NCBI GenBank assembly: GCA_016844745.1
Contig: JAERMQ010000005.1
Coordinates: 47,964-111,963, forward strand
Source of the DNA: Ignavibacteria bacterium
GTDB taxonomy: Bacteria > Bacteroidota > Ignavibacteria > Kapaibacteriales > UBA2268
Length of the DNA: 64,000 nucleotides
Direction: 5' to 3'
Positions 3,307 to 50,361 of this stretch are shown one piece after another. Positions within the stretch are counted from its first letter, which is position 1; each line of letters opens with the position of its first letter. Made by a program: the position numbers and the translations under genes. Below the pieces are notes generated by a model that did no database searches, had not been told where the DNA came from, and worked only from the letters and a program-made list of their open reading frames with translations.

Positions 3307-3374
3307 AACTTATACAAGAGGCTTTTGAAAAAGTAAGATGAATAATTTAAAAATTGAAAATTTAATAATTAATT

Positions 3375-3494
3375 GAGACCTCTGAAAAATAATAAAATTA
3401 TCATGATTGTTATTCTGAACTTGTTTCAGAATCCACTCCCAGTGCGGTTTATGGATTCTGAAACAAGTTCAGAATGACATTTTTCAGAAGTCTC
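3375..3494. repeat. Palindromic intergenic element, copy A (variant stem with compensatory changes)
   Basis: Outer arms are gagacCtctgaaaaat / atttttcagaaGtctc. Inner arms are attctgaacttgtttcagaatcc / ggattctgaaacaagttcagaat. The loop starts ACTCCCA as in other copies. Confidence 0.85.
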
Positions 3495-3592
3495 TAATTG
3501 AAAATTGCTAAATTAGAAATTGAAAATTCATTAAATAAAAACATTTAGTTATAAGAAGTCAAATTTGAATTACAAAATAAAGGATTATTAGT

Positions 3593-4879
3593 TTGACAGT
3601 TACTAAAGCAGAAAGAACAGGCTGGTATTTTTATGATTGGGCTAATTCAGCTTTTTATACTACTGTTATAACTGTTTTTTTAGGTCCTTATCTCACTTCA
3701 ATTACCAAATCTGCTGCTGATTCATCAGGATATGTTCAGGTTATTGGTATCCCTGTTTATGCTGATTCCTTATTTGCTTATACTGTTTCACTATCTGTTG
3801 CTCTTCAGGTTATAATACTTCCATTATTTGGAGCAATTGCCGATACCACCAATTATAAAAAAACGATATTAGGTATATCGGCATATATTGGCGCAATAGC
3901 TACAACATTAATGTTCTTTCTGGAGGGAACAAGATTCCTGCTTGGAAGTATTTTATTTATAATTGCAAATATTAGTTTCGGTGTATCGGTTATTATTTAT
4001 AATTCCTATTTGAACGAAATCGCCGAGCCGGAGAATCGCGATAAAATATCTGCAAACGGTTGGGCATTCGGTTACCTGGGTGGTGGAATTTTACTTGCTT
4101 TGAATCTTCTTCTATTTTCCCAGAAAGACAAACTTGGAATAACGACGGATTATGCCGTAAGAATTTGTTTATGCTCTGCTGGACTTTGGTGGGGAATATT
4201 CACCATTATTCCTTTATTGACATTAAAAAACCGGAAACAGAACGGTATTAAAGCCTTATCCGGTAATATCGTTTATTCGGGATTCAGACAATTATTCAAA
4301 ACAATACGGGATGCAAGAAAATATCCTGTAACTTTACTTTTTCTCTTATCATTTATTTTCTACAATGAGGGAATCCAGACTATTATTGTAATTTCTTCTC
4401 TATTCGGACATGAAGAACTGGGAATACCATTTTCGACTCTAACCCAGATAATTCTAATGGTTCAGTTCATTGCCTTTCTTGGTTCCCTTTTTTATAAATT
4501 CGTTTTGAGATATTTAAGTGTAAAAAATACAATAATAATTTCCCTTTTCATTTGGCTTTCAATAATAGTTTATACTTATAGATTTTTAACCGGTACAACA
4601 GATTTTTTTATACTTGCTGCATGTATAGCCCTTGTATTAGGAGGAACACAAGCAATGAGCCGTTCTTTTTTTTCAAATATGATACCTTTGGGATACGAAG
4701 CAGAATATTTCAGTCTTTACGAAATAAGCGACCGTGGAACAAGCTGGCTTGGTCCTTTGATATTTGGTTTGTCCCTTCAATTAACCGGTTCATACAGATA
4801 TGCTATGCTATCTCTCGGAGTATTTATCGCAATCGGATTAGCGCTTCTATTTAAAGTAAAAGAAAGTGAACTCAAATAA
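3593..4879 (+). CDS. MFS transporter, UMF1 (Atg22-like) family
   Basis: N-terminus AERTGWYFYDWANSAFYTTVITVFLGPYL, about 12 hydrophobic segments, TTG start. Confidence 0.75.
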   Translation: MTVTKAERTGWYFYDWANSAFYTTVITVFLGPYLTSITKSAADSSGYVQVIGIPVYADSLFAYTVSLSVALQVIILPLFGAIADTTNYKKTILGISAYIGAIATTLMFFLEGTRFLLGSILFIIANISFGVSVIIYNSYLNEIAEPENRDKISANGWAFGYLGGGILLALNLLLFSQKDKLGITTDYAVRICLCSAGLWWGIFTIIPLLTLKNRKQNGIKALSGNIVYSGFRQLFKTIRDARKYPVTLLFLLSFIFYNEGIQTIIVISSLFGHEELGIPFSTLTQIILMVQFIAFLGSLFYKFVLRYLSVKNTIIISLFIWLSIIVYTYRFLTGTTDFFILAACIALVLGGTQAMSRSFFSNMIPLGYEAEYFSLYEISDRGTSWLGPLIFGLSLQLTGSYRYAMLSLGVFIAIGLALLFKVKESELK

Positions 4880-32900: not shown

Positions 32901-32985
32901 GGAGGATTCGCATAATGGTATTGCAGCGGTCTTGAAAACCGCCGGGCGTCAGCCTGTGGGGGTTCGAGTCCCTCATCCTCCGCCA
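32901..32985 (+). tRNA. tRNA-Ser (anticodon TGA), type II with long variable arm, encoded CCA
   Basis: Acceptor ggaggat/atcctcc. Anticodon stem gcggt/accgc with loop ctTGAaa. Long variable arm, T loop ttcgagt, 3' gCCA. Confidence 0.88.
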
Positions 32986-36017: not shown

Positions 36018-37520
36018 TCAATTATTTAGCACCTCAATTATCTCTTTAAAGCTATTCAAAGCTGTTTCAATATTTTCAACAATTTCTAATGCTATTGCAT
36101 CCGGTTCCGGTAAATTGTCAAGGTCTCCTAAGCTCTCGTCTTTAAGCCAGAAAATGTCAAGGTTAGTCTTGTCCCGTGCTATCAGTTCTTCATAAGTGAA
36201 ACATTTGAATTGCTCGGTTTCTTTTCGTTTGAATCTGTTTTCCGGATTGTAGCATTTTACGAAGTCCTCAAGATGTTCATATTGCATCTGCTGGGTTTTT
36301 AAAGTGAAATGCTGATTAGTCCGTAGGTCGTAAATCCAGACTTCTTTTGTCCATGCTGATTTACTTGCCGGTTTGTTATCAAAGAAAATTACATTTGCCT
36401 TCACTCCCTGTGCATAGAAAATACCAGTCGGTAGCCTTAAAAGAGTATGCACATCACAGCTTTCAAGTAGTTTCTTACGGATTGTTTCACCTGCTCCACC
36501 TTCAAATAAAACGTTATCAGGTACAACTACAGCCGCTTTACCATCTATTTTCAGCATTGTCCTGATATGCTGAATGAAATTCAATTGCTTATTTGAAGTA
36601 GTTGCCCAGAAGTCCTGCCTGTTATATGTTAGGGATTCTTTACCTTGCGAACCGTCCTCGTGTGTTAAAGTTATACTACTCTTTTTGCCAAAAGGAGGAT
36701 TAGTCAGAACATAGTCAAATCTCTGGTTCGGGTCTGAAATTAAGCTGTCTGCCTGAACAATGACGGGTGTGCTGTCAATATCACCTATATTATGCAGGAA
36801 CAAATTCATAAGGCACAAACGAGCCGTCATCGGAACAATTTCCCATCCCTTGAATGTTTTGAATTTCAGGAAGTCCTTTTGTTCCCTGTTTAGCTGATAT
36901 TTCTTGCTTATATAATCGTAGAATGAAATAATAAAACCACCGGTACCGGCTGCAGGGTCGCACATTGTTTTCGATGGTTCCGGATGAATGCACTCAACCA
37001 TAGCCTTGATTAACGGTCTCAATGTAAAATACTGCCCGGCTCCGCTTTTGGTATCCTCTGCATTCTTTTGCAGTAACCCTTCGTATATTTCACCTTTAAC
37101 GTCGTAGTCAATGCTAATCCAGGTTTCTTCATTTATTAGTTGAACTAACTTAAAGAGCTTTGCCGGGTCTTGGATTCGGTTCTGAGCTTTATTGAATATC
37201 GTGCCTAACATTCCTTTTTCCAAACCGAGGTTCTTGAGAAGATTGATATAATGCAATTCAAGTTCAGCGCCTGTCTTACTTACAAGAGATTCCCAGTTGA
37301 ATTCTTTTGGAATATTTATTTTCCGGTTATATGGCGGTTTCGAGTATTCATCTGCCATTTTCAGGAAAAGTAAAAATGTTAGTTGCTCGAGGTAGTCGCC
37401 ATAACTGACACCGTCATCCCTCAAAATATTACAGTAATTCCAAACCTTGGCAACTATATTTGACGATGACTTTTTTAATGCTGAATGCTGAATTCTGAAT
37501 TCTGAATTATTTTTTTGCAT
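36018..37520 (-). CDS. hsdM: Type I restriction-modification system methyltransferase subunit HsdM
   Basis: HsdM_N-like start (KVWNYCNILRDDGVSYGDYLEQLTFLLFLK), AdoMet motif DPAAGTGGF and catalytic NPPFGKK. Confidence 0.93.
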   Translation of the reverse strand: MQKNNSEFRIQHSALKKSSSNIVAKVWNYCNILRDDGVSYGDYLEQLTFLLFLKMADEYSKPPYNRKINIPKEFNWESLVSKTGAELELHYINLLKNLGLEKGMLGTIFNKAQNRIQDPAKLFKLVQLINEETWISIDYDVKGEIYEGLLQKNAEDTKSGAGQYFTLRPLIKAMVECIHPEPSKTMCDPAAGTGGFIISFYDYISKKYQLNREQKDFLKFKTFKGWEIVPMTARLCLMNLFLHNIGDIDSTPVIVQADSLISDPNQRFDYVLTNPPFGKKSSITLTHEDGSQGKESLTYNRQDFWATTSNKQLNFIQHIRTMLKIDGKAAVVVPDNVLFEGGAGETIRKKLLESCDVHTLLRLPTGIFYAQGVKANVIFFDNKPASKSAWTKEVWIYDLRTNQHFTLKTQQMQYEHLEDFVKCYNPENRFKRKETEQFKCFTYEELIARDKTNLDIFWLKDESLGDLDNLPEPDAIALEIVENIETALNSFKEIIEVLNN

Positions 37521-37663
37521 TGCTTCTTTCTTTAGAAGTTAATATTATACTATTATATTTGACGATGCTTTTTTAATGCTGAATTCTGAATGCTGAATTC
37601 TGAATGCTGAATTCTGAATTATTTTTTTGCATTGCTTCTTTCTTTAGAAGTTAATATTATACT
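37455..37663. repeat. Tandem ~100/110-nt duplication spanning the hsdM start and the four-helix-bundle gene 3' end
   Basis: Copy 1 (37455..37553) has 4 heptamer units. Copy 2 (37554..~37663) has 6 units and a 1-nt deletion. Both contain attatttttttgcattgcttctttctttagaagttaatattatact. Confidence 0.9.
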
Positions 37664-37987
37664 GTTGATTATTTTTAGGATTTCCGAAGAGTCTTTTGAT
37701 ATGGAATCAAAAGATTTCTTATCAATATAGTTGGTATCTTTTAATAAATTTAACCAATACTCAGTTTCTCTTGTTTCTTTTGCAGAAATTCCTAATTTGT
37801 GAACAAAATCCATTTTTGATTCTGCAGATTGAGCTTCATTAATATTTGCTCCAATTGATGTGCCGCTTCTTAAAATTTGCTTTGAAATGACATATTCTTT
37901 CTTTTCATCAATCAAAAATTTATATAGTTTGATTATTCTAATAGCAAATTTATATGATTTTCCAACGATGATATTTTCTTTTCCCAT
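37619..37987 (-). CDS. Four-helix-bundle protein (23S rRNA intervening-sequence protein family, TIGR02436-like)
   Basis: Motifs YKFAIRIIKLYKFL, QILRSGTSIGANINEAQ, SKMDFVHKLGISAKETRETEYWL. Confidence 0.85.
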   Translation of the reverse strand: MGKENIIVGKSYKFAIRIIKLYKFLIDEKKEYVISKQILRSGTSIGANINEAQSAESKMDFVHKLGISAKETRETEYWLNLLKDTNYIDKKSFDSISKDSSEILKIINSIILTSKERSNAKK

Positions 37988-38000
37988 TTTATTATCCCTT

Positions 38001-38131
38001 CTTCTTTAATGCTGAACTTCTTTAATGCTGAATTCTGAATGCTGAACTTCTTTAATGCTGAATTCTGAATGCTGAATTCTGAATGAAAAGACAATTCAGC
38101 ATTCAGCATTCAGCATTCAGCATTCATAATT
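38001..38131. repeat. Heptamer array with orientation switch (imperfect long hairpin)
   Basis: Three cttctttaatgctgaa... units, then gctgaattctgaatgctgaattctgaatg, a 7-nt loop aaaagac, then aattcagcattcagcattcagcattcagcattc. Confidence 0.9.
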
Positions 38132-38702
38132 ATTTCCCTTTTTCAAATTCATTCTTCAATCGGAAATAGTAATCTTCCATAAAATCCGAAAATCCCCAAC
38201 CAATATTACGTGAACGCTCATAAAGTATTTTCAATCTTTCGCTGAACATATTATATAAATGAGGATATTTATTCAATGTAGAGCAAAAATCATCGAATGC
38301 AACATCAATCGAATTATAAAAATTAGAAGAAATATCACCGAAATCCTTTGTAAAAGCATTGCAGGTTTCAACATAATAGAGTTTTAAGTCTGCTATATGT
38401 TGGGGATAATCCTTGAGTATTTTAGCATTATCCGAAATTACTTTTTTGGCTTCTCTTAGTTTTAAATGATTATTAGAATAAACAGAAGTACCATAAATAA
38501 AACGATAAATTTTCTTTTTAGCATCTGTTATCATTGCATCAAAATTAATTCCATCAGAACCTTTCAAAAATACATCCAGAAATTCTTTATTCTTAGGATT
38601 AATTTTTGTCATTTCAATAATAACTTCAATAAGCTCCTCTTTCTCTAATTCCAGAAGCTCATACTTCAATGTCTTTTTCGGTATCTTCTTTATTTCTTTC
38701 AT
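38130..38702 (-). CDS. Hypothetical helical protein (cassette between hsdS and hsdM)
   Basis: Intact 190-aa ORF with arrays in the same orientation on both sides. No catalytic motif recognised. Confidence 0.6.
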   Translation of the reverse strand: MKEIKKIPKKTLKYELLELEKEELIEVIIEMTKINPKNKEFLDVFLKGSDGINFDAMITDAKKKIYRFIYGTSVYSNNHLKLREAKKVISDNAKILKDYPQHIADLKLYYVETCNAFTKDFGDISSNFYNSIDVAFDDFCSTLNKYPHLYNMFSERLKILYERSRNIGWGFSDFMEDYYFRLKNEFEKGK

Positions 38703-38836
38703 TCTACATTCTACATTCTAAATTCAGCATTCAGCATTCTAAATTCAGCATTCATAATTCAGCATTCAGCATTCTAAATTCAGCATTCAGCATTCATAAT
38801 TCAGCATTCAGCATTCATAATTCAGCATTCAGCATT
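38701..38836. repeat. Heptamer array (ATTCAGC/ATTCTAA/ATTCATA/ATTCTAC), about 19 units
   Basis: Read directly. It spans the gap between the hsdS stop and the start of the 190-aa ORF. Confidence 0.95.
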
Positions 38837-40151
38837 TCTTAATCCTTTCAAGCAAGACCGAAGCCGGTTCATCATTCGGGTCTTGAGGAACAAGCCTACC
38901 TTCAAATGCTTTTTTCAAAATGCTCTGACGAAGGCTTTCAGCTTGAATTAAGCTCAAATCTATTGTCTTTTCTAAATTCTCTGTTTCTGAAAAACGGGCT
39001 TCTATCTCGGATACGATTTGGTTTTGTAATGCTGAATTAGGAATGCTGAATGCTGAATTTTTTAAGAAATCGGCAGGAACTCTTAATTGACCAGCTGTGC
39101 CTTTCATATTATTTCTTGCATTCTTACGAAATGTCTCTTGCAGAACAAAATAAAACATAAATTTTGGGATTACTTCGGTTTTATAAACCCTAATTACATG
39201 AAATTCCGTTGAACCACAACCAACTCCATTAATAAGATTTTCCAATAGAGCAATTTTACCATTTTCCATACAGGGAGTTATTTTAGCAAAGATAATATCA
39301 CCGTTTTGAAATTGAGTAAATCCTTTTTTAACTACCCCAAATTTACGAATGTCTGATAAATTATATTTCCCTGATTCTGCTTCAACCATTTTCATCGGTA
39401 AAAATGAAACTTCAACATTATCATCAGGATTAGAATCAAGTCTTGGATTTACTTTAGCAACGTCACAAATTCTTTTTTTCTTCCATTCAGAATTCAGCAT
39501 TCTTAATTCAGCATTCTCACAGACCAATTTCCCACTAAAAGCATAAGACAGGACAGATTGTTTATAGCGCGAAATCTGTTCTTTCGCTTTTTTCAATGCC
39601 GAAACTGCAACATCAAGCTGGCTGAAAAGTTCTTCGAGTTTGGCTACTATGCGGTGCTGTTCTGGGAGTGGAGGGAGGGGGATTGGTATAATTTTCAGAT
39701 GACCTAATGGGATAAATTTCTGTGTAGTACCTTTAATCAATTGTTCTTTTTCAAGAATAAGATTTAAATATTGAGATTGCAACCAATAACAAATATATCT
39801 ATTAAGACAAATTCTATTTTGTGGTTTAAAAAGTCCAACATTTTTGATTGCAAACTGTTTATCATAATTAACAATAACAGGATTACCAATAGTTCCAATC
39901 ATTGCAAATAAAATATCTCCACGATTTACTTTGGAACGAAGATTTATTTGAATATAGTCCGCTTGTGAAATTAATTTAATGTTATCAAAATCAATAAATC
40001 CAAATTTAAGGTTTTTAGAAGTTATCAATGGATAACCTGAAGATTGATATTTTGGAGTATCATGCGTACCATCAGTAATTTTTTCACAAATATCACCAAG
40101 TTTAGTGATAGTCCAAGAAGGTGGGAGATTATTTTTCAATTCAGAATTCAT
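38829..40151 (-). CDS. hsdS: Type I R-M specificity subunit HsdS (two TRDs)
   Basis: LPPSWTITKLGDI start of TRD1. Central conserved helix is LPPLPEQHRIVAKLEELFSQLD, and the C-terminal conserved helix is QNQIVSEIEARFSE...SILKKAFEGRLV. Confidence 0.9.
   Translation of the reverse strand: MNSELKNNLPPSWTITKLGDICEKITDGTHDTPKYQSSGYPLITSKNLKFGFIDFDNIKLISQADYIQINLRSKVNRGDILFAMIGTIGNPVIVNYDKQFAIKNVGLFKPQNRICLNRYICYWLQSQYLNLILEKEQLIKGTTQKFIPLGHLKIIPIPLPPLPEQHRIVAKLEELFSQLDVAVSALKKAKEQISRYKQSVLSYAFSGKLVCENAELRMLNSEWKKKRICDVAKVNPRLDSNPDDNVEVSFLPMKMVEAESGKYNLSDIRKFGVVKKGFTQFQNGDIIFAKITPCMENGKIALLENLINGVGCGSTEFHVIRVYKTEVIPKFMFYFVLQETFRKNARNNMKGTAGQLRVPADFLKNSAFSIPNSALQNQIVSEIEARFSETENLEKTIDLSLIQAESLRQSILKKAFEGRLVPQDPNDEPASVLLERIKKC
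39028..39059. repeat. Heptamer tract inside hsdS (GCTGAAT orientation), translated as NSAFSIPNSALQ
   Basis: aatgctgaattaggaatgctgaatgctgaatt. It sits at the TRD2 / C-terminal conserved-region boundary. Confidence 0.9.
39485..39516. repeat. Heptamer tract inside hsdS (ATTCAGC orientation), translated as ENAELRMLNSEW
   Basis: attcagaattcagcattcttaattcagcattc. It sits at the central conserved-region / TRD2 boundary and is inverted relative to 39028..39059. Confidence 0.9.
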
Positions 40152-40172
40152 AATTCAGCATTTTACATTCTA
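40135..40172. repeat. Heptamer tract covering the hsdS start codon
   Basis: attcagaattcataattcagcattttacattctaaac. The hsdS ATG (40151-40149) lies inside it. Confidence 0.85.
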
Positions 40173-40205: not shown

Positions 40206-40703
40206 TTAATCTTCTTTAATAGCCACCATAACTGATAAATTTAATTCACCTTCTATAGTGAAGTCAATTTCATAATCCTGAATCAGGAAATTATATTGAT
40301 TAAACAACAGTTCTTTACGTTTTATAAGTTTATCAAGTTCAGTAATTTGCTGTGAATTATATTTAAAAAGATTAAGTGCATATTTATATTCCTTATCTCT
40401 GATATTAGCCGGCAAAATTGCAATATTCCACGCTACAACCGCAAATTCAATAACGGCTCTGATTTCATCATCATTTTTAGTAAGTTCAAGCAAAGGCTCT
40501 GCAAATTCAATAATGATTTGTGAAGCTTTTTCCTTGAAGGGTTTCTTTTTAAAACTAATTTTTCCGGTATTTTCTATTTTATCGGCTCTATCTAATAATT
40601 TTTCGCTAACACCATCCTTTTTAGCTTTTTCAAGGAAGCTCCTCTTTTTCTTGTTAAAATCTTCTTTCTTTTTCTGTCTTTTAATATTTGATTTAATGGA
40701 CAT
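40206..40703 (-). CDS. Hypothetical protein, paralogue A of 42443..42916 (Lys-rich N-terminus + conserved ~110-aa C-domain)
   Basis: Alignment by eye: SQIIIEFAEPLL...AVIEFAVVAWNIAILP...KRKELLFNQYNF versus SNIILEFALPFI...KALEFAIIVWNITTLP...NRKHELFSEYDF. The ATG at 40703 is preferred. The track ORF starts at TTG 40787. Confidence 0.6.
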   Translation of the reverse strand: MSIKSNIKRQKKKEDFNKKKRSFLEKAKKDGVSEKLLDRADKIENTGKISFKKKPFKEKASQIIIEFAEPLLELTKNDDEIRAVIEFAVVAWNIAILPANIRDKEYKYALNLFKYNSQQITELDKLIKRKELLFNQYNFLIQDYEIDFTIEGELNLSVMVAIKED

Positions 40704-40783
40704 ATAAACTAAGATATATCTTAAAAATTCCCAATTCCTAATTATTTTATTTGTTTGAATATTTACACAGTTATTCAACATTC

Positions 40784-42283
40784 TCAATTGTTAATTGTCA
40801 ATTCCTTTGCGAACGCTCTAAATTTGTCAGTTGTAACGTATTTGCCTGTTTTATCTGAGCCATGATATTCAATAAAACCAATTTTCTTTAAAAAGACTAA
40901 ATCATTTTCTACCGTTCTATCAGTTATTCCGACATTTTTGGTATTTATACCGTCTTTTACTCCGAAATTTACAGCGAACTCTTTTGCTGATTCAAACTTT
41001 GAAGAATTAATTAAATCCAGTATTTTCAATAATCTTTGTATTCGTTTGCCTTTTACTCCGAAATTTACTCCGAAATTTACTCCGAAATTTACTCCGAAAT
41101 TTACTCCGAAATTTTCACTCAAAATGTCGGTGGTTATTTCTTTGTAATTTTCATTATTCTCAGCTTTTAATTTTCTTTCAAACTTTATCGTAAAAAAAGA
41201 ACCTTTTTCAAAGATAGCGGGAGGCAAATCAGCTTCTTTCATAGCATCCTGAATTCGCTTTATTCCAGTTCCAAGCTTTTCAATATAATTTGCCCTTAGC
41301 ATCATCGAAGCAATTAAAGTATTTCTTGTAACACTCTTAGTTCCGAAATCAGATTCCTTCAATCCATGGGGTAAGCCTCCGGGGTTTGAAATCTCAACTC
41401 TGTCGTCAAATATTTCAATAATTACATTTGCTCCCTTTTCAAAATAATCGCGATGGACAACAGAATTGATAATTGCTTCACGCAAAGCTGTTTCTGGGAT
41501 TTCCAAAATATCTTCTCTCTGAAGAGTTTTAATTTTGTAGCTTATTTTCAGATGCTTTTTCAGGAATAAAATTGCTTCCTCAACATTGGATATAAGGTCG
41601 CCATTGAAATCCTTTCTGTCAAGTATATGAATTTTTTCCTTACCTTTATATAAAACTCCCGTAACTACAGATTGTATAAATATTCTATCGGGATTCTTAG
41701 CAAAGAATAGAATTCCTGCATTATTCAGTATTGTTTTTGTTTCGTCCTGGGATAAAATACCAAGATTTTCTAATACCACTTTGTAATCATATTCTGAGGA
41801 GATACCACATTTTCTTAAGAATCTATTATATTTATCCAAATCAAAATCTTCAGCAAAATTGAATCTTTTGTCATAAATCTCATCGAATCTGACTCTTCCT
41901 TCATTCTGAATAAAAGCTATTATGTCGTCTGTGCTCATCTTTTGAGAAGTAGCGCCATTTCTTAGATAGAAACCGGAAGAGCATTTATAAGGTTTTCTAT
42001 TTCCTTCAGGAACATTTATAATTACTATTTTTTCAAATTTTTCAATTGTAATTCTTATCGGGGGGTCGCAGTTTTCAGCAATGCTTTGAATCTCTGATTT
42101 AATCCTATTGTCTAATTTAAACCCTTTAATAGCTGAAGCATCAGTAATTCCAAGAAAAATTCTTCCTCTAGCAGAATTAGCAAAAGAAACTATTTCTTTA
42201 TCAATTTTCGATAAAGATTCTTTGAATTCTATGAAATATCCTTCACCTTCTTCGAGGATTATTCTCAACTCTTCTTGTCTCAT
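40784..42283 (-). CDS. AlbA_2 (Schlafen-like DNA-binding) + HATPase_c_4 + C-terminal wHTH protein (RecG-like putative transcriptional regulator family)
   Basis: N-terminus is EGEGYFIEFKESL...FANSARGRIFLGI. The HATPase_c_4-like part is REAIINSVVHRDYFEKGANVIIEIFDDRVEISNPGGLP. There is an internal (NFGV)5 repeat. Confidence 0.75.
   Translation of the reverse strand: MRQEELRIILEEGEGYFIEFKESLSKIDKEIVSFANSARGRIFLGITDASAIKGFKLDNRIKSEIQSIAENCDPPIRITIEKFEKIVIINVPEGNRKPYKCSSGFYLRNGATSQKMSTDDIIAFIQNEGRVRFDEIYDKRFNFAEDFDLDKYNRFLRKCGISSEYDYKVVLENLGILSQDETKTILNNAGILFFAKNPDRIFIQSVVTGVLYKGKEKIHILDRKDFNGDLISNVEEAILFLKKHLKISYKIKTLQREDILEIPETALREAIINSVVHRDYFEKGANVIIEIFDDRVEISNPGGLPHGLKESDFGTKSVTRNTLIASMMLRANYIEKLGTGIKRIQDAMKEADLPPAIFEKGSFFTIKFERKLKAENNENYKEITTDILSENFGVNFGVNFGVNFGVNFGVKGKRIQRLLKILDLINSSKFESAKEFAVNFGVKDGINTKNVGITDRTVENDLVFLKKIGFIEYHGSDKTGKYVTTDKFRAFAKELTINN
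41052..41111. repeat. 12-nt tandem repeat x5 (tttactccgaaa), in frame, encoding (NFGV)5
   Basis: Five perfect units counted. A sixth diverged copy at about 40950-40975 encodes AVNFGVKD. Confidence 0.95.
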
Positions 42284-42290
42284 GATATTC

Positions 42291-42376
42291 CTATGCTACA
42301 AGTTCCAAATTAATTTCTTCAATTATATTATCTAATTCATTGCCGAACAGCTTCCAGACCAACCATGCTCGGCAAA
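42291..42376 (-). pseudogene. Relic of hsdR 3' end (copy 3, with ~10-nt deletion)
   Basis: Aligns with 45108..45200 and 44810..44906: ...gccgaacagcttccagacc[..]ccatgctcggcaaa. It ends in LELVA-stop 8 nt from the AlbA_2 start codon. Confidence 0.8.
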
Positions 42377-42399
42377 TTCTACATTCTAAATTCTACATT
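42376..42399. repeat. Heptamer tract (ATTCTAC/ATTCTAA)
   Basis: attctacattctaaattctacatt. Confidence 0.85.
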
Positions 42400-42447
42400 G
42401 AAAAAGCCAAGTTTAGCAATAGTCCATGAATGAAGTAAGAAATTATT
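42400..42447 (-). other. hsdS-5'-like relic 1
   Basis: Reverse strand reads AATAATTTCTTACTTCATTCATGGACTATTGCTAAACTTGG. hsdS codons 6-20 read AAAAATAATCTCCCACCTTCTTGGACTATCACTAAACTTGG. Confidence 0.7.
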
Positions 42448-42916
42448 TATCATATTTTACAGACACTCCAAGCGATAAATACATATCGCCATTTTCATTA
42501 AAATTAGCATTAAAATCGTTTATATAAAAATCATATTCGCTAAATAATTCATGCTTTCGATTTATGAGATTTTTCATATCATTAATATCGAATATATTAT
42601 TTTGAAGTTTAGAGATTTCTTTTTGTAATGATTCGGATGGTAAAGTAGTTATATTCCATACAATTATAGCAAATTCAAGTGCCTTTAATTGTTCCATTTG
42701 ATTTGACTTTTGAGAAATAAATGGCAATGCAAATTCAAGAATGATATTAGATTGGTTTTCTTTTAATTGTTTACTTTTAAAACTACTTCTATTATTATCG
42801 TTAAACTTGTTTTCCATCGACAATAATTTCGAAATATTTCTTTCGTCTTTAACCTTTTCCAAATTGGTTTGTTTTTTTATTTTTCCATTCTGATTAATAA
42901 ATGATTTTTTTGCCAT
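42443..42916 (-). CDS. Hypothetical protein, paralogue B of 40206..40703
   Basis: See paralogue A. Intact 157-aa ORF with an ATG start. Confidence 0.6.
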   Translation of the reverse strand: MAKKSFINQNGKIKKQTNLEKVKDERNISKLLSMENKFNDNNRSSFKSKQLKENQSNIILEFALPFISQKSNQMEQLKALEFAIIVWNITTLPSESLQKEISKLQNNIFDINDMKNLINRKHELFSEYDFYINDFNANFNENGDMYLSLGVSVKYDK

Positions 42917-42949: not shown

Positions 42950-42979
42950 TTTTACATTCTACATTTTCAATTATCAATT
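42950..42979. repeat. Heptamer tract (degenerate)
   Basis: ttttacattctacattttcaattatcaatt. Confidence 0.7.
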
Positions 42980-43024
42980 GAAAAGCCAAATTTAACAAGA
43001 GTCAATGAGGGTGAGAAGTTATTA
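42977..43024 (-). other. hsdS-5'-like relic 2
   Basis: Reverse strand reads TAACTTCTCACCCTCATTGACTCTTGTTAAATTTGGCTTTTCAATTG. It aligns with relic 1, including the shared GGCTTTT(T)CAAT tail. Confidence 0.6.
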
Positions 43025-43432
43025 ATTTTCATCATAAATAATAATGTTTTCTGAACTTATTTCGGCAAGAATTGTTGCAACAAATTTCTTATCTTCGAAA
43101 TTGGGTTTGCCCTCCCAACCTATAATATCAATATGTCTTTCAGGAATATAGTTTTTTTCAATATCAATTTCATCAGCGGGGAAATCTGACTCATTTATCG
43201 AGCAATGTCCATGGGGAAACTTCTTATTAGGTCGTACATTATTTTTTGAAGCTATTTCTTTAACTTCAGAAATATCTATACATTGTGTTTCATAACATGA
43301 AACCTCAAGTCTTTGATTTATTTCGTTTGTATCAGGGAAAAATGCTTTCCAGTGAACACGTGAATTAGAATCTTTTAAGTTATTTTCTCTTAAAAATCTT
43401 GAATAAATTTCAGGTGTTCCGTATTTGCTCAT
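43022..43432 (-). CDS. Hypothetical protein (third gene of the three-gene cassette)
   Basis: Intact 136-aa ORF with an ATGA overlap to the upstream gene. No motif recognised. Conserved-looking His/Cys/Glu residues (HGHCSI, ERHIDIIGW). Confidence 0.6.
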   Translation of the reverse strand: MSKYGTPEIYSRFLRENNLKDSNSRVHWKAFFPDTNEINQRLEVSCYETQCIDISEVKEIASKNNVRPNKKFPHGHCSINESDFPADEIDIEKNYIPERHIDIIGWEGKPNFEDKKFVATILAEISSENIIIYDEN

Positions 43433-44010
43433 ACAAACTTATCCTTAAATAATCTTTCAATATCATTTTGGATTTTAGTTATTGAAGTTTTGTTAATATA
43501 CATTTTGGAACTGGAAGATTCCCCATGAAAAAGTGATACGAAATAAAGTTCACCATTTTTGCCAAAAGTCAGATTAGCTCTTGCTCCAATTCTGCCATAC
43601 CATTCAAAGTCAATTTCGCCATCATAATCGACATCAACTTCAGGTTTCAAAGTAGTTATATAATTAGAATCGAATAACCTAATAAAATTGGATAAATTTG
43701 AACGTGAATGATGAAAAGTTTCTTTAATTTTAGCTCTTTTTTGCTCGTAAAGTGATTTATCGGAAGTTTGAATATCAATATTCTCTTCTTCAAATTCAAT
43801 AAAGAATTCTTGAAATTTCTTATGAATTAAAGTTAACATGTCTGAAAATTCAAAAAATTCTCCATCTTTTGTACAAAAAGTACTACTTAATTCGTTAATA
43901 AGTTTTATTTCGCTATTAATAAATGAGAATGAATTTTCTCCGGAATATAGGTATTGATTAGATATTTGAAGTTGATAATCAAGGGTTTCGTTATAATTTT
44001 CAATTCCCAT
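43429..44010 (-). CDS. Hypothetical protein (second gene of the three-gene cassette)
   Basis: Intact 193-aa ORF. TAATG overlap with the upstream gene and ATGA overlap with the downstream gene. Confidence 0.6.
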   Translation of the reverse strand: MGIENYNETLDYQLQISNQYLYSGENSFSFINSEIKLINELSSTFCTKDGEFFEFSDMLTLIHKKFQEFFIEFEEENIDIQTSDKSLYEQKRAKIKETFHHSRSNLSNFIRLFDSNYITTLKPEVDVDYDGEIDFEWYGRIGARANLTFGKNGELYFVSLFHGESSSSKMYINKTSITKIQNDIERLFKDKFV

Positions 44011-44735
44011 TACAAAAGCTCCTCTAATTTATCAGATACTATTTGAAAAAAAATGTCATTCTTTATTTTTCTCATTTTATCAAGTATTTTATTAACTTTT
44101 TTAAGTTCGGTTGGATTAAAAATGCTTGTATTGAAAACATCAGTATCAACGATAATTTTTTTATTTTTTAAATCAACAATAAAATTTAAAATTGCTCCTT
44201 CAAAATCAGAATATTCAAAGATCGATTGATTATATGTTCTTTTAATTTTTCCTGAAAGTTCTTTTTTAAAAACTAAAGGAGTTCTTTCTAAATATTTTTT
44301 AAATCTGTCCGGGAAGTTTATTTCATTTATATATCTTAATCCAATTCTGGAAATATTTCCTAATTTGAAAAGATTATTAATTTCAGAATAAATCTTAAAA
44401 AATTCTTCAAGTAAAGTTTCAAAATTATTATAGGAATTGATTTTGCTTACTGATAACCTATCTTTTAAAAAATGAACAACAAAACCACGTGTTTTATCTT
44501 CCAACTTAATTCCTTGAAATGGAAACTGGCTTTCAGAAACTTCAGTAGCTTTATCCATTTGAACCCCAAAGGTAAATTTTTTCAAGTCTAAAAATTGAGA
44601 GCTACTATAATTTTCCTTTAAATGTTCTTGAAAATTCAAAAGTTCTTCTTTATTAAAATTCAGCATTGGCTGGAATTGAAATTCAATTACAGCTTCTTTT
44701 ATAGGTGGTCTATATAAATTTCTTTGCTTACTCAT
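44010..44735 (-). CDS. TIGR04255-family-like protein (sporadically distributed, function unknown)
   Basis: N-terminus YRPPIKEAVIEFQF and mid-protein ISRIGLRYINEI match my recollection of the TIGR04255 signature. Not verified by search. Confidence 0.6.
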   Translation of the reverse strand: MSKQRNLYRPPIKEAVIEFQFQPMLNFNKEELLNFQEHLKENYSSSQFLDLKKFTFGVQMDKATEVSESQFPFQGIKLEDKTRGFVVHFLKDRLSVSKINSYNNFETLLEEFFKIYSEINNLFKLGNISRIGLRYINEINFPDRFKKYLERTPLVFKKELSGKIKRTYNQSIFEYSDFEGAILNFIVDLKNKKIIVDTDVFNTSIFNPTELKKVNKILDKMRKIKNDIFFQIVSDKLEELL

Positions 44736-44809
44736 TATCTATTACTTTTTTCATAATCAAACTTACTTTTGAGATTGACGAAATTAAACAAAATTTCATT
44801 CAAAAAAAT

Positions 44810-44906
44810 TTATGCCACCAATTCCACATTCATTTCTTCAATTAAATTATCTAATTCATTACCGAACAGCTTCCAGACCTTCATTAGCCCTCCATGCTCG
44901 GCAAAT
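44810..44906 (-). pseudogene. Relic of hsdR 3' end (copy 2)
   Basis: 5 mismatches in 96 aligned nt versus 45108..45203. It would encode FAEHGGLMKVWKLFGNELDNLIEEMNVELVA-stop. Confidence 0.9.
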
Positions 44907-44953
44907 TCAATATTCTACATCCTACATTCTACATTCTTCATTCAGCATCATTA
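44905..44953. repeat. Heptamer tract (ATTCTAC/ATTCAGC)
   Basis: attcaatattctacatcctacattctacattcttcattcagcatcatt. Confidence 0.85.
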
Positions 44954-45092: not shown

Positions 45093-45107
45093 TTTTGTCA
45101 TGATTGT

Positions 45108-47861
45108 TTACGCCACCAATTCTACATTCATTTCTTCAATTAAATTATCCAAATCATTACCGAACAGCTTCCAGACCTTCATTAGCCCTCCATGCTCTGC
45201 AAAAGGGGTATTGTCGAAATCACTTTTTTCAATATTTACCGAAGAAATGATATGGTCTTTTATCATTCTCAGCCATTCAGTTTGTTCTTCGGTAAACTGC
45301 ATATTCCCTGCATTCTTCCTGAATATCCAATCCTTAAAATTCCTGTTGACAATATCATTGTAAGGATAAAGCTCAGTATCAAAGCCCAGTTCGAACCTTA
45401 GAATGGAAATAATATCAGTCAAAGTTCTTTTTATACTTTTTCCCTTAACAATCGCTCCATTAAGATGCTCATAAGCAAACCAGAGCTTATCTATAGTCAA
45501 GAGCAGTGGTGGTCGTTGAATTGCTTCATACAATTCTTTAATCATTTTGAATGTAAGTTCTCTTCTTCTATACGGCTGGTCATAAAAGATTCTTAGAGCT
45601 ATCATTTCATCTTTATTCTCAGCTATAAACTTTTTGAATGATTCAATTGTCTGTTGAGCTTTATCTTTTGCTTGCTCATCGTATCCGGCAAATATAAGTT
45701 TATCGATGTTCTGATTGTCAATTATCTGTTCATGGGTTTGTCTGCATGTTTCGAAATAATCTCTAAGCTCCGGTTTATTGAACGGCATGCAAGCTGTTTT
45801 TATCAAATCCCTCTTAGCAATTTCTATCTGTTCATGGTTTGATTCCTTGTTTTCAGTTATTTTGAAGAGTTCTTTAGCTTTTTCAAATTGTTTATCCGGG
45901 TCATAAGAATTGAGCAAGTCATGAATTATTTGGTTCATTTTTTTACCATCAGCTAATTCATTGATTTTACTTCTTTCTTCATCAGTTATTTGCCTGTCTA
46001 TGCGTGTAAGACGATTAGCAAGCGATGTAATAGTATCCTCATCATGCTGCCCGAGTGCAACTCCTATAAGCAATTCTTTCAAAGGAACAGATTTCTTTCT
46101 TTCGAGCGGTCTTGAATCAGTCTTGATAGATTTACAAACTCCAACTGCATCTACAATAACAAAATGCGTTTTATTGGTTGTAGCCGATGGTGTAACTGTT
46201 TTCAATGAATCCATATCCAGAGTCCTGGTTCCGCGTCCCTTCATTTGTTCAAAGTAGTTCTTGCTTTTCACATCCCTCATGAATAGTAAACATTCAATAG
46301 GTTTTACATCAGTCCCGGTAGCTATCATGTCCACTGTAACAGCAATACGGGGATAGTACGAATTACGAAATGATTGAAGTATGGAACTTGGATTTTCTGC
46401 ATTGTAAGTTATCTTTTTGCAGAATTTATTTTCTTCGCCAAACTCTTCTAAAACGATACTGATAATATCATCAGCATGGCTATCGGTTTTAGCAAATATC
46501 AAAGTTTTCGGGACTTCTTTTCTGTTCGGGAAAATTTCAGTTTGCAGAGATTCTTTGAATGTTCTGATAACTTTTCTAATTTGGCTTTTATTAACAATGT
46601 CCCTATCTAATTGAGTTGGTTTGTATTCAATATCCTCATCAAGCTGTGTCCAGCGTTTCTTCCGGTCCAACTTACTCCTGGTTTCTACATAATCTTTCAG
46701 GATTTTACCACCTTTAGTTGTTATTTCCGTTTCGATTGTATAAACATCATAACCTACATTCACACCGTCTGCTACTGCTGATTCATGTGAATATTCACTA
46801 ACGATGTTTTCATTGAAAAAGGCATAAGTCCTTGCATCAGGAGTAGCTGTTAAACCAATTAAAAAGCTGTCAAAATAATCCAGTACCTGCTTCCAGAGAT
46901 TGTATATTGAACGGTGACATTCATCAACTATAATAAAATCAAAGAATTCAATTGGTATTATTTGGTTATAATATACCTCTTTTGGCTTTTCATCTTTCAA
47001 GTGCAATTCATTTAATGAGGTTTGCTCTGCACTTTCGTCGAGTTCTTCATTTGAAAGTATTGAATACATTCTTTGAATTGTAGAAATACAAACCTGGCTG
47101 TTCTTATCAATGAAATTGGAATTTAATCTTTGTACATTATAAAGCTCAGTAAATTTTCTATTATCGTCCGGAGGAGTAAAAGCCTGAAACTCCTGTTGAG
47201 CCTGCTCACCAAGATTCCTTGTGTCAACCAAGAAAAGGATTCTTTTGGCTCCGGCAAACTTCAATAAACGATAGATTGACGTTATAGCTGTAAAAGTTTT
47301 CCCGCTACCTGTAGCCATTTGAATAAGCGCTTTGGGTTTAGCATCTGAAAAAGATTTATCAAGTTTATTAATAGCATTAAACTGGCAATCACGTAAGTTA
47401 TTTAATTCAAGAGTAGGAATATGCTGTAATCTATATCTTAAAGAATTGGCATTTTTTAACCATTCTTTCAAAGTTTCCGGTTTATGAAATGAAAAGATTT
47501 CTCTTGAACGTGGCTTTGGGTCTCTGTAATCAGCAAAGTGGATTTCAATTCCGGTAGATTCGTAAACAAAAGGAAGTGGTTCACTATTAATAAACCATTT
47601 GATTTTATCAGTAGCATATCTGAAAGACTGGTCATGGACTGTTGTAAGTATTGTTCCCTCTGGTTTGGCTTCAATTACTCCAATTGGCTTTCCTTCGATA
47701 AATAGCATGTAATCTGCTTCTCCGGAATCAGTCGGAAATTCCCGAACTGCAATACCAGGACCTACAGATAAATTAACCTGCTTATAATCTTGAATAATCC
47801 AACAACATTGAGTTAGTTGGATATCAATATTCTGTCTCGCTTCTTGTTCCGGATTTTGCAC
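45108..47861 (-). CDS. hsdR: Type I restriction endonuclease subunit HsdR (SF2 helicase, EcoEI_R_C-like C-terminus)
   Basis: HSDR_N-like nuclease start (ADYMLFIEGKPIGVIEAK), Walker A MATGSGKT, DEAD-box VDECHRS and motif VI QMKGRGTR. Confidence 0.93.
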   Translation of the reverse strand: MQNPEQEARQNIDIQLTQCCWIIQDYKQVNLSVGPGIAVREFPTDSGEADYMLFIEGKPIGVIEAKPEGTILTTVHDQSFRYATDKIKWFINSEPLPFVYESTGIEIHFADYRDPKPRSREIFSFHKPETLKEWLKNANSLRYRLQHIPTLELNNLRDCQFNAINKLDKSFSDAKPKALIQMATGSGKTFTAITSIYRLLKFAGAKRILFLVDTRNLGEQAQQEFQAFTPPDDNRKFTELYNVQRLNSNFIDKNSQVCISTIQRMYSILSNEELDESAEQTSLNELHLKDEKPKEVYYNQIIPIEFFDFIIVDECHRSIYNLWKQVLDYFDSFLIGLTATPDARTYAFFNENIVSEYSHESAVADGVNVGYDVYTIETEITTKGGKILKDYVETRSKLDRKKRWTQLDEDIEYKPTQLDRDIVNKSQIRKVIRTFKESLQTEIFPNRKEVPKTLIFAKTDSHADDIISIVLEEFGEENKFCKKITYNAENPSSILQSFRNSYYPRIAVTVDMIATGTDVKPIECLLFMRDVKSKNYFEQMKGRGTRTLDMDSLKTVTPSATTNKTHFVIVDAVGVCKSIKTDSRPLERKKSVPLKELLIGVALGQHDEDTITSLANRLTRIDRQITDEERSKINELADGKKMNQIIHDLLNSYDPDKQFEKAKELFKITENKESNHEQIEIAKRDLIKTACMPFNKPELRDYFETCRQTHEQIIDNQNIDKLIFAGYDEQAKDKAQQTIESFKKFIAENKDEMIALRIFYDQPYRRRELTFKMIKELYEAIQRPPLLLTIDKLWFAYEHLNGAIVKGKSIKRTLTDIISILRFELGFDTELYPYNDIVNRNFKDWIFRKNAGNMQFTEEQTEWLRMIKDHIISSVNIEKSDFDNTPFAEHGGLMKVWKLFGNDLDNLIEEMNVELVA

Positions 47862-48916: not shown

Positions 48917-49168
48917 TTAAACCTTTGCCAATTTCAGTTCCGGCTCTTTTCGCCAAACCTTATTCATTTCAACAAATTTGATATTGCTCGTAATTTTTAT
49001 ATACTTCTTGAATGTTTTATAATCGGAATGCCCGGTGATTTCCATTACAGTTTCCGGACGTAATCCTCGTTCAAGAGATAAAGTAACAAAGGTCCTGCGG
49101 GCAGTTTGAGTAGTGATAAGTTCTATCATGCTTTCATTGCCAATTTTAACTCCGGCTCCATACGCCAA
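48917..49168 (-). pseudogene. Relic of a second tyrosine integrase (C-terminal ~68 codons only)
   Basis: ELITTQTARRTFVTLSLERGLRPETVMEITGHSDYKTFKKYIKI... parallels the C-terminus of the adjacent integrase (HTARRTFVTLSLEKGMRPETVMAITGHKDYKTFDKYVKI). Confidence 0.8.
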
Positions 49169-50361
49169 GTCCTATTCATCTCAACTTTCTTTACCTTGCT
49201 CGAAATTTTTACATATTTGTCGAATGTCTTATAATCCTTATGCCCAGTAATCGCCATAACCGTTTCAGGACGCATACCTTTCTCTAAAGATAATGTAACG
49301 AAAGTTCGTCTGGCTGTGTGGGTGCTGATTAGTTCATACTTGAAAAAAATCTCTTCAATTTTTTCAGCGCCACGGTACTTTGTAATTTTTCTTTTATCAT
49401 TGATTCTTGCAATTTGGCATAAGTTTTTAAGATGTTCATTCGTTTTCTGGTTCGAAATAACCGGTAAAGGCTCATCATTACTCAAATACTTATTTATAAT
49501 TGCTTCGGAAAAGGCATTTAGTGGAATTTCAAGAGGGTCTTTAGTTTTAGCTGTTCGTAAATACCACTGCCCATCTCTTATATCATCTCTTTTTAATTTA
49601 GAAATATCTGAAAACCTTTGACCAGTGAAGCATCCAAAACAAAATACATCCCTAACCCTCTCCAATGCTTTATTCGCGGATAAATCAAGATTATAAAGCC
49701 TCATCAGCTCAAATTCAGTCAAATAAATTATTTCTGTTTTTACTTCCTTTGATTTGAATTTCTTATAATCGAGGTTGGCATTGGCTTTCCGCTCAGTTGC
49801 CTAATTCATAAAAATTCTTAATAATCCTATCAGCTTATGGACAGTATTATTAGTATGCTGCTTATCGTCCAGCAGATAATTTTTAAATTGGTCAAAAAAC
49901 ATCATATCCATATTATTGAATGACAAGTGATAATTCCTCGATTTATTGAAATTCTCTATATGAGTTTTAAGTTGTTTGAACTTTTGTATGCTTGCTTTAC
50001 TCAAATCAGTTTGCCTGACCTTTAGAAACAGGTCATATACTTCAAAGAAACTCAATATTTTTTTTTCTTCCACTTTTTTAAAATGGGAATAAATAATTTT
50101 TTTAAATTCCTCAATGCTGGCAAAAGGGTTATCGTTTAATAAATTTCTGTGAATCTTTAGAATTTCATTTTTTATTGTAGTAAGCCGCTCTTCCAACTCA
50201 ATACAACCGGCATAAGTGGATTGAGCTTTCTGAAGTTTTACGTTCCATTTTGAAGGGTCGAGTTTTTCTCCAGTATTAAGAACAATTGTAGTATCGGTTT
50301 TAGCAGCGCATCTTATGTAAGCATAAATAGTTTTTTCTTTTTGCTTACTTTTTTTTATCAA
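49126..50361 (-). pseudogene. Tyrosine recombinase/integrase (Bacteroidetes type) interrupted by one in-frame TAG
   Basis: Track ORFs 49801..50361 (N-terminal arm/SAM-like part) and 49126..49722 (catalytic part with R...HxxR...Y) are in the same frame. They are joined by 26 sense codons, and the only stop is at 49801-49803 (...LLRIFMN*ATERKANANL...). Confidence 0.85.

Follow-up and report, generated by a model that had tools for sequence, protein, structure and literature searches.

A three-gene cassette in a Type I restriction-modification operon

The subject of this report is a cassette of three small genes, here called ORF1, ORF2 and ORF3 (ORF, open reading frame) or collectively the trio, located between hsdR and hsdS of a Type I restriction-modification (R-M) operon in an Ignavibacteria bacterium (GenBank assembly GCA_016844745.1, contig JAERMQ010000005.1, positions 47,964 to 111,963 of the forward strand). 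The whole stretch of DNA that was analysed, 64,000 nucleotides (nt) long, is referred to as the window, and positions are counted from its first letter. An earlier note on this DNA had described three intact, overlapping same-strand ORFs of 241, 193 and 136 amino acids (aa), with TAATG and ATGA at their junctions, inside a Type I R-M operon among decayed mobility genes; the sequence confirms this arrangement, the decayed neighbours being pieces of an integrase gene.

44735-44010, minus strand: ORF1, 241 aa, intact, TIGR04255 family protein
44012-44008, minus strand: TAATG junction, ORF1 stop and ORF2 start with a 1-nt overlap at the shared base 44010 (sequence reading)
44010-43429, minus strand: ORF2, 193 aa, intact, acidic (isoelectric point, pI, 4.9)
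43432-43429, minus strand: ATGA junction, ORF2 stop and ORF3 start with a 4-nt overlap (sequence reading)
43432-43022, minus strand: ORF3, 136 aa, intact, the most conserved component
45108-47861, minus strand: hsdR, Type I restriction subunit, upstream of the cassette; product 74% identical to its homologue in locus L001
38829-40151, minus strand: hsdS, Type I specificity subunit, downstream of the cassette; 37% identical to the L001 Methylase_S protein
36018-37520, minus strand: hsdM, Type I methyltransferase subunit; 83% identical to the L001 HsdM_N/N6_Mtase protein

Locus L001 is a related R-M operon that also carries the trio, and the hsd genes of the window were identified through its homologues, which have Pfam matches to HSDR_N/ResIII/EcoEI_R_C, Methylase_S and HsdM_N/N6_Mtase. 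A scan for promoters and terminators in this AT-rich DNA returned counts equal to the shuffled expectation.

The assignment of ORF1 to TIGR04255, which the earlier note had proposed as a resemblance, holds over the full length of the protein: the NCBIfam model is matched with an E-value of 5.7e-32 and 111.5 bits (cut-off 30) across model positions 4-250 of 252, and ORF1 keeps all invariant columns of a 49-sequence family alignment (E14, A15, Y102, R134, N137, D197 and F229). By these sequence comparisons ORF1 is a bona fide full-length member of the family, and its homologues in the trios of L001 and L008 also pass the TIGR04255 cut-off. NCBIfam describes TIGR04255 as a 'sporadically distributed' family and assigns it no function. 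ORF1 has no above-threshold match in Pfam and no match in PADLOC (E<=0.1), PHROGs or the PDB; the Pfam family Imm59 was considered and set aside, because the match falls short of the cut-off (19.1 against 26.9 bits), covers just 40 residues and is absent in 40 other ORF1 homologues. A full-text search of the available library found no paper that mentions the term 'TIGR04255', and neither the term nor the trio was found in the part of the supplements of Payne et al. (bioRxiv 10.1101/2024.01.29.577857) that was available. Together with the lack of PADLOC, Pfam and PDB matches described below, this agrees with the description of the system as uncharacterised.

The trio recurs as a unit across bacterial phyla

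A scan for the pattern PxRHANIxGW over 185,579 species, with one genome for each, returned 101 confirmed loci, 80 of which were taken for comparison (L020-L099, nearly all of them metagenome-assembled genomes, MAGs); counts of the trio given here refer to 87 non-redundant loci. These span more than 15 phyla, with members in Nitrospirota, Thermodesulfobacteriota, Verrucomicrobiota, Gemmatimonadota, Binatia, Planctomycetota, Chloroflexota, Acidobacteriota, Deinococcota, Spirochaetota, Fibrobacterota, Pseudomonadota and others. With an iterated profile, an ORF3-like gene with an ORF2-like gene directly upstream was detected in about 77 of the 80 scanned loci, and a TIGR04255-like gene lies directly upstream of the ORF2-like gene in at least 60 of them. 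The full ORF1-ORF2-ORF3 order is present in 62 of the 87 non-redundant loci and ORF2-ORF3 without the first gene in 19. ORF3 stands by itself in three, two of which (L020 and L037) have it at a contig edge, and the remaining three comprise one ORF1-ORF2 locus in which no ORF3 was detected, one ORF1-ORF3 locus, and one (L076) with a fusion of ORF1 and ORF2. Wherever a contig extends far enough upstream, ORF2 accompanies ORF3. Full trios outside R-M operons are exemplified by L008, L013 and L016, and pairs of ORF2 and ORF3 beside housekeeping genes by L002 and L004.

The coupling of the genes is conserved along with their order. Junctions between ORF1 and ORF2 are of the -4 type (a 4-nt overlap) in 48 of 63 cases and of the -1 type in two, and those between ORF2 and ORF3 fall mostly between -25 and +20 nt, the 4-nt overlap of the window being shared by L001, L002, L008, L013, L016 and 16 further loci. 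The start/stop overlaps are not due to chance, because the same type of junction recurs across related loci. The proposal that the three genes form a single co-inherited unit is thus well supported, both by their co-occurrence across many phyla and by the conservation of their overlaps, and on this comparative evidence the trio is one self-contained, sporadically distributed and horizontally moving module.

The fusion in L076 is a 414-aa ORF (2729-3973, in a Betaproteobacteria MAG) of which residues 1-243 correspond to TIGR04255 and 246-413 to an ORF2-like protein; it is either a genuine Rosetta-stone fusion or a frameshift of MAG assembly. Other departures from the standard arrangement were also seen. 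In L063 (1316-4369) the ORF2-like gene is about 2 kb upstream of ORF3, with a reverse-strand gene of 494 aa in between. Copies of ORF3 are split or truncated in L077 (~3860-4282), L096 (3801-4237) and L078 (4155-4415), and ORF1 is split in L089 and truncated in L040 (possibly a contig-edge effect), with no clear asymmetry between ORF1 and ORF3 in disruption; MAG errors are possible in all of these.

ORF2 and ORF3 belong to large, unnamed and paired families

The earlier note had regarded ORF2 and ORF3 as orphans; they instead represent large, unnamed families that are obligately paired. Neither protein has a match in Pfam, NCBIfam, PADLOC (E<=0.1) or PHROGs, and no Pfam match was obtained for 60 members of the ORF3 superfamily or, in Pfam-A, for 119 typical members of the three families. 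In a collection of 5.8 billion proteins the close family of ORF2 comprises 17 clusters and that of ORF3 comprises 15, the 15 ORF3 members being 44-66% identical, and the contigs that carry them match in length pair by pair between the two families. A profile search of 1.84 billion representative proteins enlarges the latter to a superfamily (263 representative clusters, E<=1e-3), of which the 150 listed matches are stand-alone proteins of about 90-180 aa. By these searches the ORF2 and ORF3 superfamilies are newly recognised families, present in more than 15 phyla and absent from Pfam, NCBIfam and PADLOC.

The alignment of the ORF3 superfamily contains the motifs ..RF(I/L).., VK..AF.P, E.SVF and P.RHANI.GWP. 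In window numbering S45 and H100 are invariant, and R12, F31, P33, P97 and W106 nearly so; R99 is invariant within the close family, in addition to the H100 that is invariant across the superfamily, which gives R12, S45, P97, R99-H100 and W106 as the signature residues of the protein. Two segments of ORF3 had previously been singled out as conserved-looking, and they fared differently: ERHIDIIGW contains R99 and H100, but in HGHCSI G75 alone is near-invariant and H74, H76 and C77 vary.

Predicted structures add the following. The model of ORF3 is of high confidence (predicted local distance difference test, pLDDT, 92; predicted template modelling score, pTM, 0.86) and is an alpha/beta fold of six strands and three helices for which Foldseek found no match in the PDB (best E 0.15) or BFVD (best E 0.09); the family profile likewise had no match among PDB sequences. 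The top Foldseek match, SdeA, superimposes with a root-mean-square deviation of 11.7 Å and is meaningless. Motif and topology reasoning led us to consider an ADP-ribosyltransferase, RES, RelE/YoeB/barnase or PD-(D/E)xK identity for ORF3, and none of these received support from Foldseek or from the PDB profile search.

In ORF2 the N-terminus is variable and the C-terminal beta domain (DxDGEIDFEWYGR...) conserved; the model of the protein (pLDDT 76) has a disordered stretch (residues 1-48), a helical hairpin (49-112) and a confidently predicted beta sheet with a helix (124-192). No significant PDB fold match was found for this model; a relation of the C-terminal domain to the double-wing of phage T4 MotA or to a TriTu immunity protein (probability ~0.75, E>0.1) was rejected as not significant. 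Typical members of the ORF2 superfamily carry an ECSxxNWDGYGA motif in their N-terminal half, which has been lost in the subfamily of the window. The ORF2 family is uniformly acidic (median pI 4.85) whereas the ORF3 superfamily is generally basic (median pI 8.9). Profile searches of the PDB with members of the ORF1, ORF2 and ORF3 families were negative. Searches with hidden Markov models (HMMs) and structures, from which ORF1 emerges as a TIGR04255 protein, therefore give ORF2 and ORF3 neither a family nor a significant fold match.

TIGR04255 heads arrays with other partners

TIGR04255 genes are not confined to the trio. On the Vibrio parahaemolyticus plasmid CP063527 a TIGR04255 gene is followed by a gene for a 179-aa protein and then, with a 4-nt overlap, by one for a zeta toxin family protein. 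Crinalium pCRI9333.03 encodes TIGR04255 followed by proteins of 182 and 171 aa, and on Thermus pTB1 TIGR04255 and downstream small genes lie beside VapBC and a DNA methylase. A DNA-pattern scan for the motif RYINK.E.P recovered 34 TIGR04255 genes, of which about 30 are followed by a same-strand gene of about 120-250 aa, often with a 4-nt overlap, and then by a gene of about 120-180 aa. Twelve of these arrays contain ORF2-like and ORF3-like genes, and the rest carry unrelated pairs: in eight, archaeal loci among them, the third gene encodes a protein of about 125 aa whose homologues are annotated in RefSeq as 'HEPN domain-containing protein', in three it encodes a protein of about 146 aa with conserved Cys/His motifs (YNCIAWA ... 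PTHAARQ; a motif reading only), and other loci from the scan carry further types of gene 2 and gene 3. The HEPN-like and Cys/His proteins have no match in the PDB. HEPN pairs also occur without TIGR04255 (in Gloeothece), as do pairs of ORF2 and ORF3.

Attempts to relate the different partners to one another by hhalign gave no homology, either between the third gene of 'type D' arrays and ORF3 (probability 0.7%) or between ORF2 and the partners of the HEPN genes (probability 1.6%). Arrays of the HEPN-like type are also present in methanogenic archaea (L128, L145 and L147, in Methanosaeta, Methanomicrobia and Methanothrix MAGs), and so the TIGR04255 hub family crosses the domain boundary. Compared with the NCBIfam description of TIGR04255, the present analysis adds that members of the family head three-gene arrays with swappable gene-2/gene-3 pairs, and these gene orders suggest that TIGR04255 is a hub which modular conflict systems have in common.

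Genomic neighbours, plasmids and viruses

No fourth gene is conserved around the trio. The 143 immediate neighbour proteins match 167 different Pfam families, including RadC (4), response regulators (3), ResIII (2), Methylase_S (2), IstB (2) and a phage portal protein (1), and housekeeping functions such as Hsp70, ALAD, carbamoyl-phosphate synthase and a tRNA synthetase are represented among them. As raw counts, PADLOC identified two Type I specificity subunits and two to three mad5/mad8 proteins in the same set. Type I R-M genes adjoin the trio in the window, L001, L031, L033 and L048 only (about five of about 87 loci); in L031, L033 and L048 the trio adjoins hsdS, and in the window and L001 it lies between hsdR and hsdS. 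About 80 of the 87 loci have no R-M gene adjoining the trio. The guilt by association on which the earlier note had relied as a strong predictor of anti-phage function is consequently weaker than claimed, given this diversity of neighbours and the small share of R-M loci, although a few R-M, RadC, insertion sequence and phage neighbours do exist; the association of the trio with defence genes or mobile genetic elements is real but modest.

According to published work, a gene found inside a Type I R-M operon is frequently an anti-phage system in its own right, and even a single embedded instance is predictive (PMC11411939; bioRxiv 10.1101/2024.01.29.577857; PMC12707154); the value of embedding for predicting a role in defence has been validated (Payne et al. 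2024, bioRxiv 10.1101/2024.01.29.577857; TgvAB, PMC11411939). By analogy with these cases, the R-M embedding of the trio supports a defence role without proving one.

Among 2.9 million viral contigs an ORF3-like gene was found on one, an IMG/VR contig (L160) with the full trio. A further array, consisting of TIGR04255, an ORF2-like gene and a gene of 146 aa, is present in the P2-like prophage record of Ralstonia phage YO139_2 (ON170239.1, 34.5-36.3 kb; L161/L162). It sits beyond the portal gene, at the place where six near-identical relatives end, and the record is marked 'UNVERIFIED', so that the array is cargo of a P2-type hotspot or else flanking host DNA swept into a prophage prediction. 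Its third gene aligns in register with the ORF3 motifs, weakly (E 0.004, probability 8%).

Probable assembly of the R-M operon by cassette stacking

The DNA around the cassette contains several repeats and further inserted genes.

44809-44905, minus strand: hsdR 3'-end duplicate (repeat family D4), covering the final 97 nt of hsdR and located immediately upstream of ORF1
44912-44943, minus strand: tandem array of heptamers resembling GAATGTA (coding strand), between hsdR and the duplicate of its 3' end
37477-37620, 38002-38126, 38700-38836, 39019-39058, 39475-39517 and 40138-40170: tandem 7-nt repeats, hsdM-hsdS part
42375-42399, 42955-42966, 44912-44943 and 45118-45129: tandem 7-nt repeats, cassette-hsdR part
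42443-42916: small ORF of 157 aa, between the cassette and the SLFN_AlbA_2/HATPase_c_4 gene, without a family match
40784-42283: SLFN_AlbA_2/HATPase_c_4 gene (AlbA_2 for short), 499 aa, a further inserted gene between the cassette and hsdS
40206-40787: small ORF of 193 aa, a paralogue of the 157-aa ORF, without a family match

The copy of the hsdR end at 44809-44905 is 95% identical to the true 3' end (45107-45203), and a third copy with 69% identity lies directly upstream of the AlbA_2 gene (42290-42386), so that each copy precedes an inserted cassette. Shorter fragments resembling the hsdR 3' end also flank the trio of L001 (L001 9165-9193 and 11100-11160). We interpret the copy upstream of ORF1, from its sequence and position, as the probable footprint of cassette insertion. 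In L001 the order is hsdR - AlbA_2 - 48 aa - TIGR04255 - ORF2 homologue - ORF3 homologue - 294 aa - hsdS - 146 aa - hsdM; the trio therefore occupies a different slot there, after AlbA_2. Between the two loci the HsdR, HsdM and AlbA_2 proteins are 74-83% identical and the trio proteins just 42-54%. Taken together, the hsdR-end copies, the changed slot and the divergence of the trio indicate that cassettes have probably been stacked and exchanged by recombination at the hsdR 3' end, and that the trio is an independent cassette among them.

Tandem 7-nt repeats (GAATGTA, GAATGCT or GAATTCT on the coding strand) are found in essentially every intergenic spacer from hsdM to hsdR, and two of the sites fall inside hsdS; GAATGTAGAATG is matched 13 times with one mismatch or none, versus 0.5 expected. 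These heptamers may mark the boundaries of cassettes, serve in recombination or have a regulatory role.

Several other features of the operon and its surroundings deserve mention. The 157-aa and 193-aa paralogues, which are 38% identical and lie on either side of the SLFN_AlbA_2/HATPase_c_4 gene, have no counterpart in L001. The 499-aa protein encoded between them matches the PADLOC pAgo-associated and SIR2-PNTD models, and its gene contains a perfect 12-nt x 5 tandem repeat (41052-41114) encoding (FGVN)n, perhaps a linker that varies in length or is subject to phase variation. Two more genes are embedded between hsdS and hsdM (37619-37987 and 38130-38702); one encodes a TIGR02436 / 23S-rRNA-intervening-sequence four-helix-bundle protein (E 1e-32) and the other a 190-aa protein with a weak match to DUF6155. 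The decayed integrase is a tyrosine-recombinase-like gene at 48917-50361 in three pieces (83, 198 and 186 aa), in which a C-terminal motif is present twice, as judged by motif reading, and a tRNA-Ser at 32901-32985, about 16 kb from these pieces, might mark the other end of the island.

A putative tripartite conflict module and its alternatives

We hypothesize that the trio is a tripartite toxin–antitoxin or abortive-infection-type module, in which the effector role would fall to ORF3, a neutralising or adaptor role to ORF2 and sensing or regulation to ORF1; to this reading as a whole we give about an even chance. ORF3 would act as a small, enzyme-like effector or toxin, with a conserved site centred on Ser, His and Arg in a fold that has no PDB or BFVD match. 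ORF2, the acidic and translationally coupled partner, would bind ORF3 through its C-terminal beta domain and keep it inactive, and ORF1 may be a common sensor or regulator that acts through ORF2 and decides on release of the effector. Upon phage attack or loss of the module, ORF3 would be set free to cause growth arrest or abortive infection. The module would have been stacked as a cassette into the Type I R-M operon without depending on R-M mechanistically.

The toxin–antitoxin or abortive-infection reading is preferred because the trio combines a coupled acidic/basic pair, an optional and shared ORF1, a fusion and a sporadic, context-free spread. Pairs of ORF2 and ORF3, and HEPN pairs, that lack TIGR04255 are as expected of two-gene toxin–antitoxin cores, and the HEPN-like gene at the position of ORF3 in sister arrays implies that ORF3 plays an equivalent effector role. 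The case for defence or conflict, as first put forward from the R-M context, is strengthened in this respect because TIGR04255 elsewhere precedes zeta toxin and HEPN proteins at the ORF3 position.

Comparison with known systems is instructive in both directions. Like tripartite toxin–antitoxin systems (omega-epsilon-zeta and three-component type II systems), the trio consists of three small, co-directional, coupled and co-inherited genes, of which the last is the most conserved and enzyme-like and the middle one acidic; its two-gene core also occurs without the first gene, and one TIGR04255 array, that of the Vibrio plasmid, ends in a zeta toxin. It differs in that none of its three proteins is similar, in sequence or in fold, to omega, epsilon, zeta or another catalogued toxin–antitoxin family, and ORF1, at about 245 aa and with no recognisable DNA-binding domain, gives no indication of an omega-like repressor role. 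Similarly to HEPN toxin–antitoxin or abortive pairs, sister TIGR04255 arrays hold a HEPN-like gene of about 125 aa in third place together with a cognate upstream partner; however, the model of ORF3 is alpha/beta rather than an all-helical bundle, ORF3 has no HEPN match in Pfam or the PDB and no Rx4-6H motif (R99 and H100 being adjacent rather than spaced), and ORF2 is not homologous to the HEPN partners. As with R-M-embedded defence genes (PrrC/EcoprrI; TgvAB of V. cholerae VPI-2; the 'guilt-by-embedding' candidates of PADLOC), the cassette lies between hsd genes in an operon that is otherwise intact, and its embedding recurs in several unrelated lineages, but the trio has no homology to PrrC, GmrSD/TgvAB or the PADLOC v2.0.0 models. 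A mobile toxin–antitoxin or abortive-like module that is sometimes R-M-embedded is thus a known kind of system, of which the present members and the hub design are undescribed.

It is important to note that a number of observations weigh against a toxin–antitoxin or abortive-infection module. No known toxin, antitoxin or defence protein is similar in sequence or in fold to any of the three proteins. ORF3 of the window is itself acidic (pI 5.0), ORF2 has no recognisable DNA-binding domain, and the ORF1-ORF2 fusion may be an assembly error of the MAG. Most neighbours of the trio are unrelated to defence and many are housekeeping genes. No ORF3-like gene was found in 72,556 PLSDB plasmids when searched with one member of the ORF3 superfamily, and such rarity on plasmids and viral contigs is unlike many classic toxin–antitoxin systems. 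Finally, the HEPN and Cys/His labels of the sister arrays come from homologue annotation and motif reading.

A pure addiction or stabilisation module, which would retain the island or the R-M operon by post-segregational killing and have no part in phage defence, would share much of the same evidence: the tight pair with an acidic upstream partner, the pairs that lack ORF1, the analogous zeta-toxin array on a plasmid, and the persistence of an intact trio in an island whose integrase genes have decayed. Yet the plasmid search yielded no ORF3-like gene, most loci are chromosomal and beside housekeeping genes, where the benefit of addiction is small, and recurrent R-M embedding with occasional carriage on prophages or viral contigs fits defence better; we therefore regard addiction as the sole role as unlikely, bearing in mind that addiction and defence are not mutually exclusive. 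The same housekeeping neighbours, the lack of similarity to any defence or toxin family, and the occurrence of the trio on large chromosomal contigs in many phyla would also suit a non-conflict cellular function (a regulatory, stress-response or modification pathway) that came to lie in the R-M operon by chance. Such a function is improbable in our judgement, given a sporadic distribution (about 100 matches among the 185,579 species genomes) in a context that is not conserved, the pairing of TIGR04255 with zeta and HEPN toxins at the equivalent position, and the cassette-type insertion footprints and divergence much above that of the flanking genes.

The R-M setting itself suggests a guardian of the PrrC type, latent on the Type I R-M complex and activated when an anti-restriction protein of a phage inhibits that complex. 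PrrC provides a precedent for this logic (PMC12707154), and the trio does lie between hsdR and hsdS in the window and L001 and beside hsdS in L031, L033 and L048. PrrC, however, is found almost only inside Type I R-M (bioRxiv 10.1101/2024.01.29.577857), whereas the trio is mostly found outside R-M loci, and because most loci have no R-M genes a PrrC-like dependence on the R-M complex is unlikely. The trio moreover has no homology to PrrC or RloC, no ABC-ATPase or anticodon-nuclease domain is present in ORF1, ORF2 or ORF3, and in related R-M operons the trio shifts position and has diverged much further than the R-M genes have, all of which makes a guardian highly improbable. Least probable of all, by a judgement close to that for the guardian, is that the trio is cargo of mobile elements, serving counter-defence or competition between elements (anti-restriction or superinfection exclusion) on islands and prophages. 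The viral contig, the array at the end of the P2-like prophage record, and the RadC, IstB and phage portal genes among the neighbours are what such cargo would leave behind, but a single contig in 2.9 million is a very low frequency, the prophage record carries the 'UNVERIFIED' mark and may extend into flanking host DNA, and most loci have no mobile-element hallmarks within 4 kb.

Implications for TIGR04255 and its partner families

A broader extension of the toxin–antitoxin or abortive-infection reading is possible, though we hold it to be doubtful. TIGR04255 may define a large, unrecognised modular immune superfamily of bacteria and archaea, in which a common sensor would be combined with cognate adaptors or antitoxins and with interchangeable effectors, namely a zeta kinase, a HEPN RNase, a papain-like Cys/His enzyme or the ORF3 superfamily, with ORF3 being an enzyme of unseen fold and a Ser/His/Arg active site.

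The window illustrates the probable stacking of cassettes into a Type I R-M operon by way of hsdR 3'-end copies and heptamer arrays, a process of relevance to the assembly of defence islands. The structure of ORF3, predicted with high confidence, is without a neighbour in the PDB or BFVD and, if the toxin–antitoxin or abortive-infection reading is correct, may reveal a new effector chemistry. That reading would also give TIGR04255 a function and an architecture, a hub with swappable effectors that connects zeta and HEPN toxins with the families of ORF2 and ORF3.

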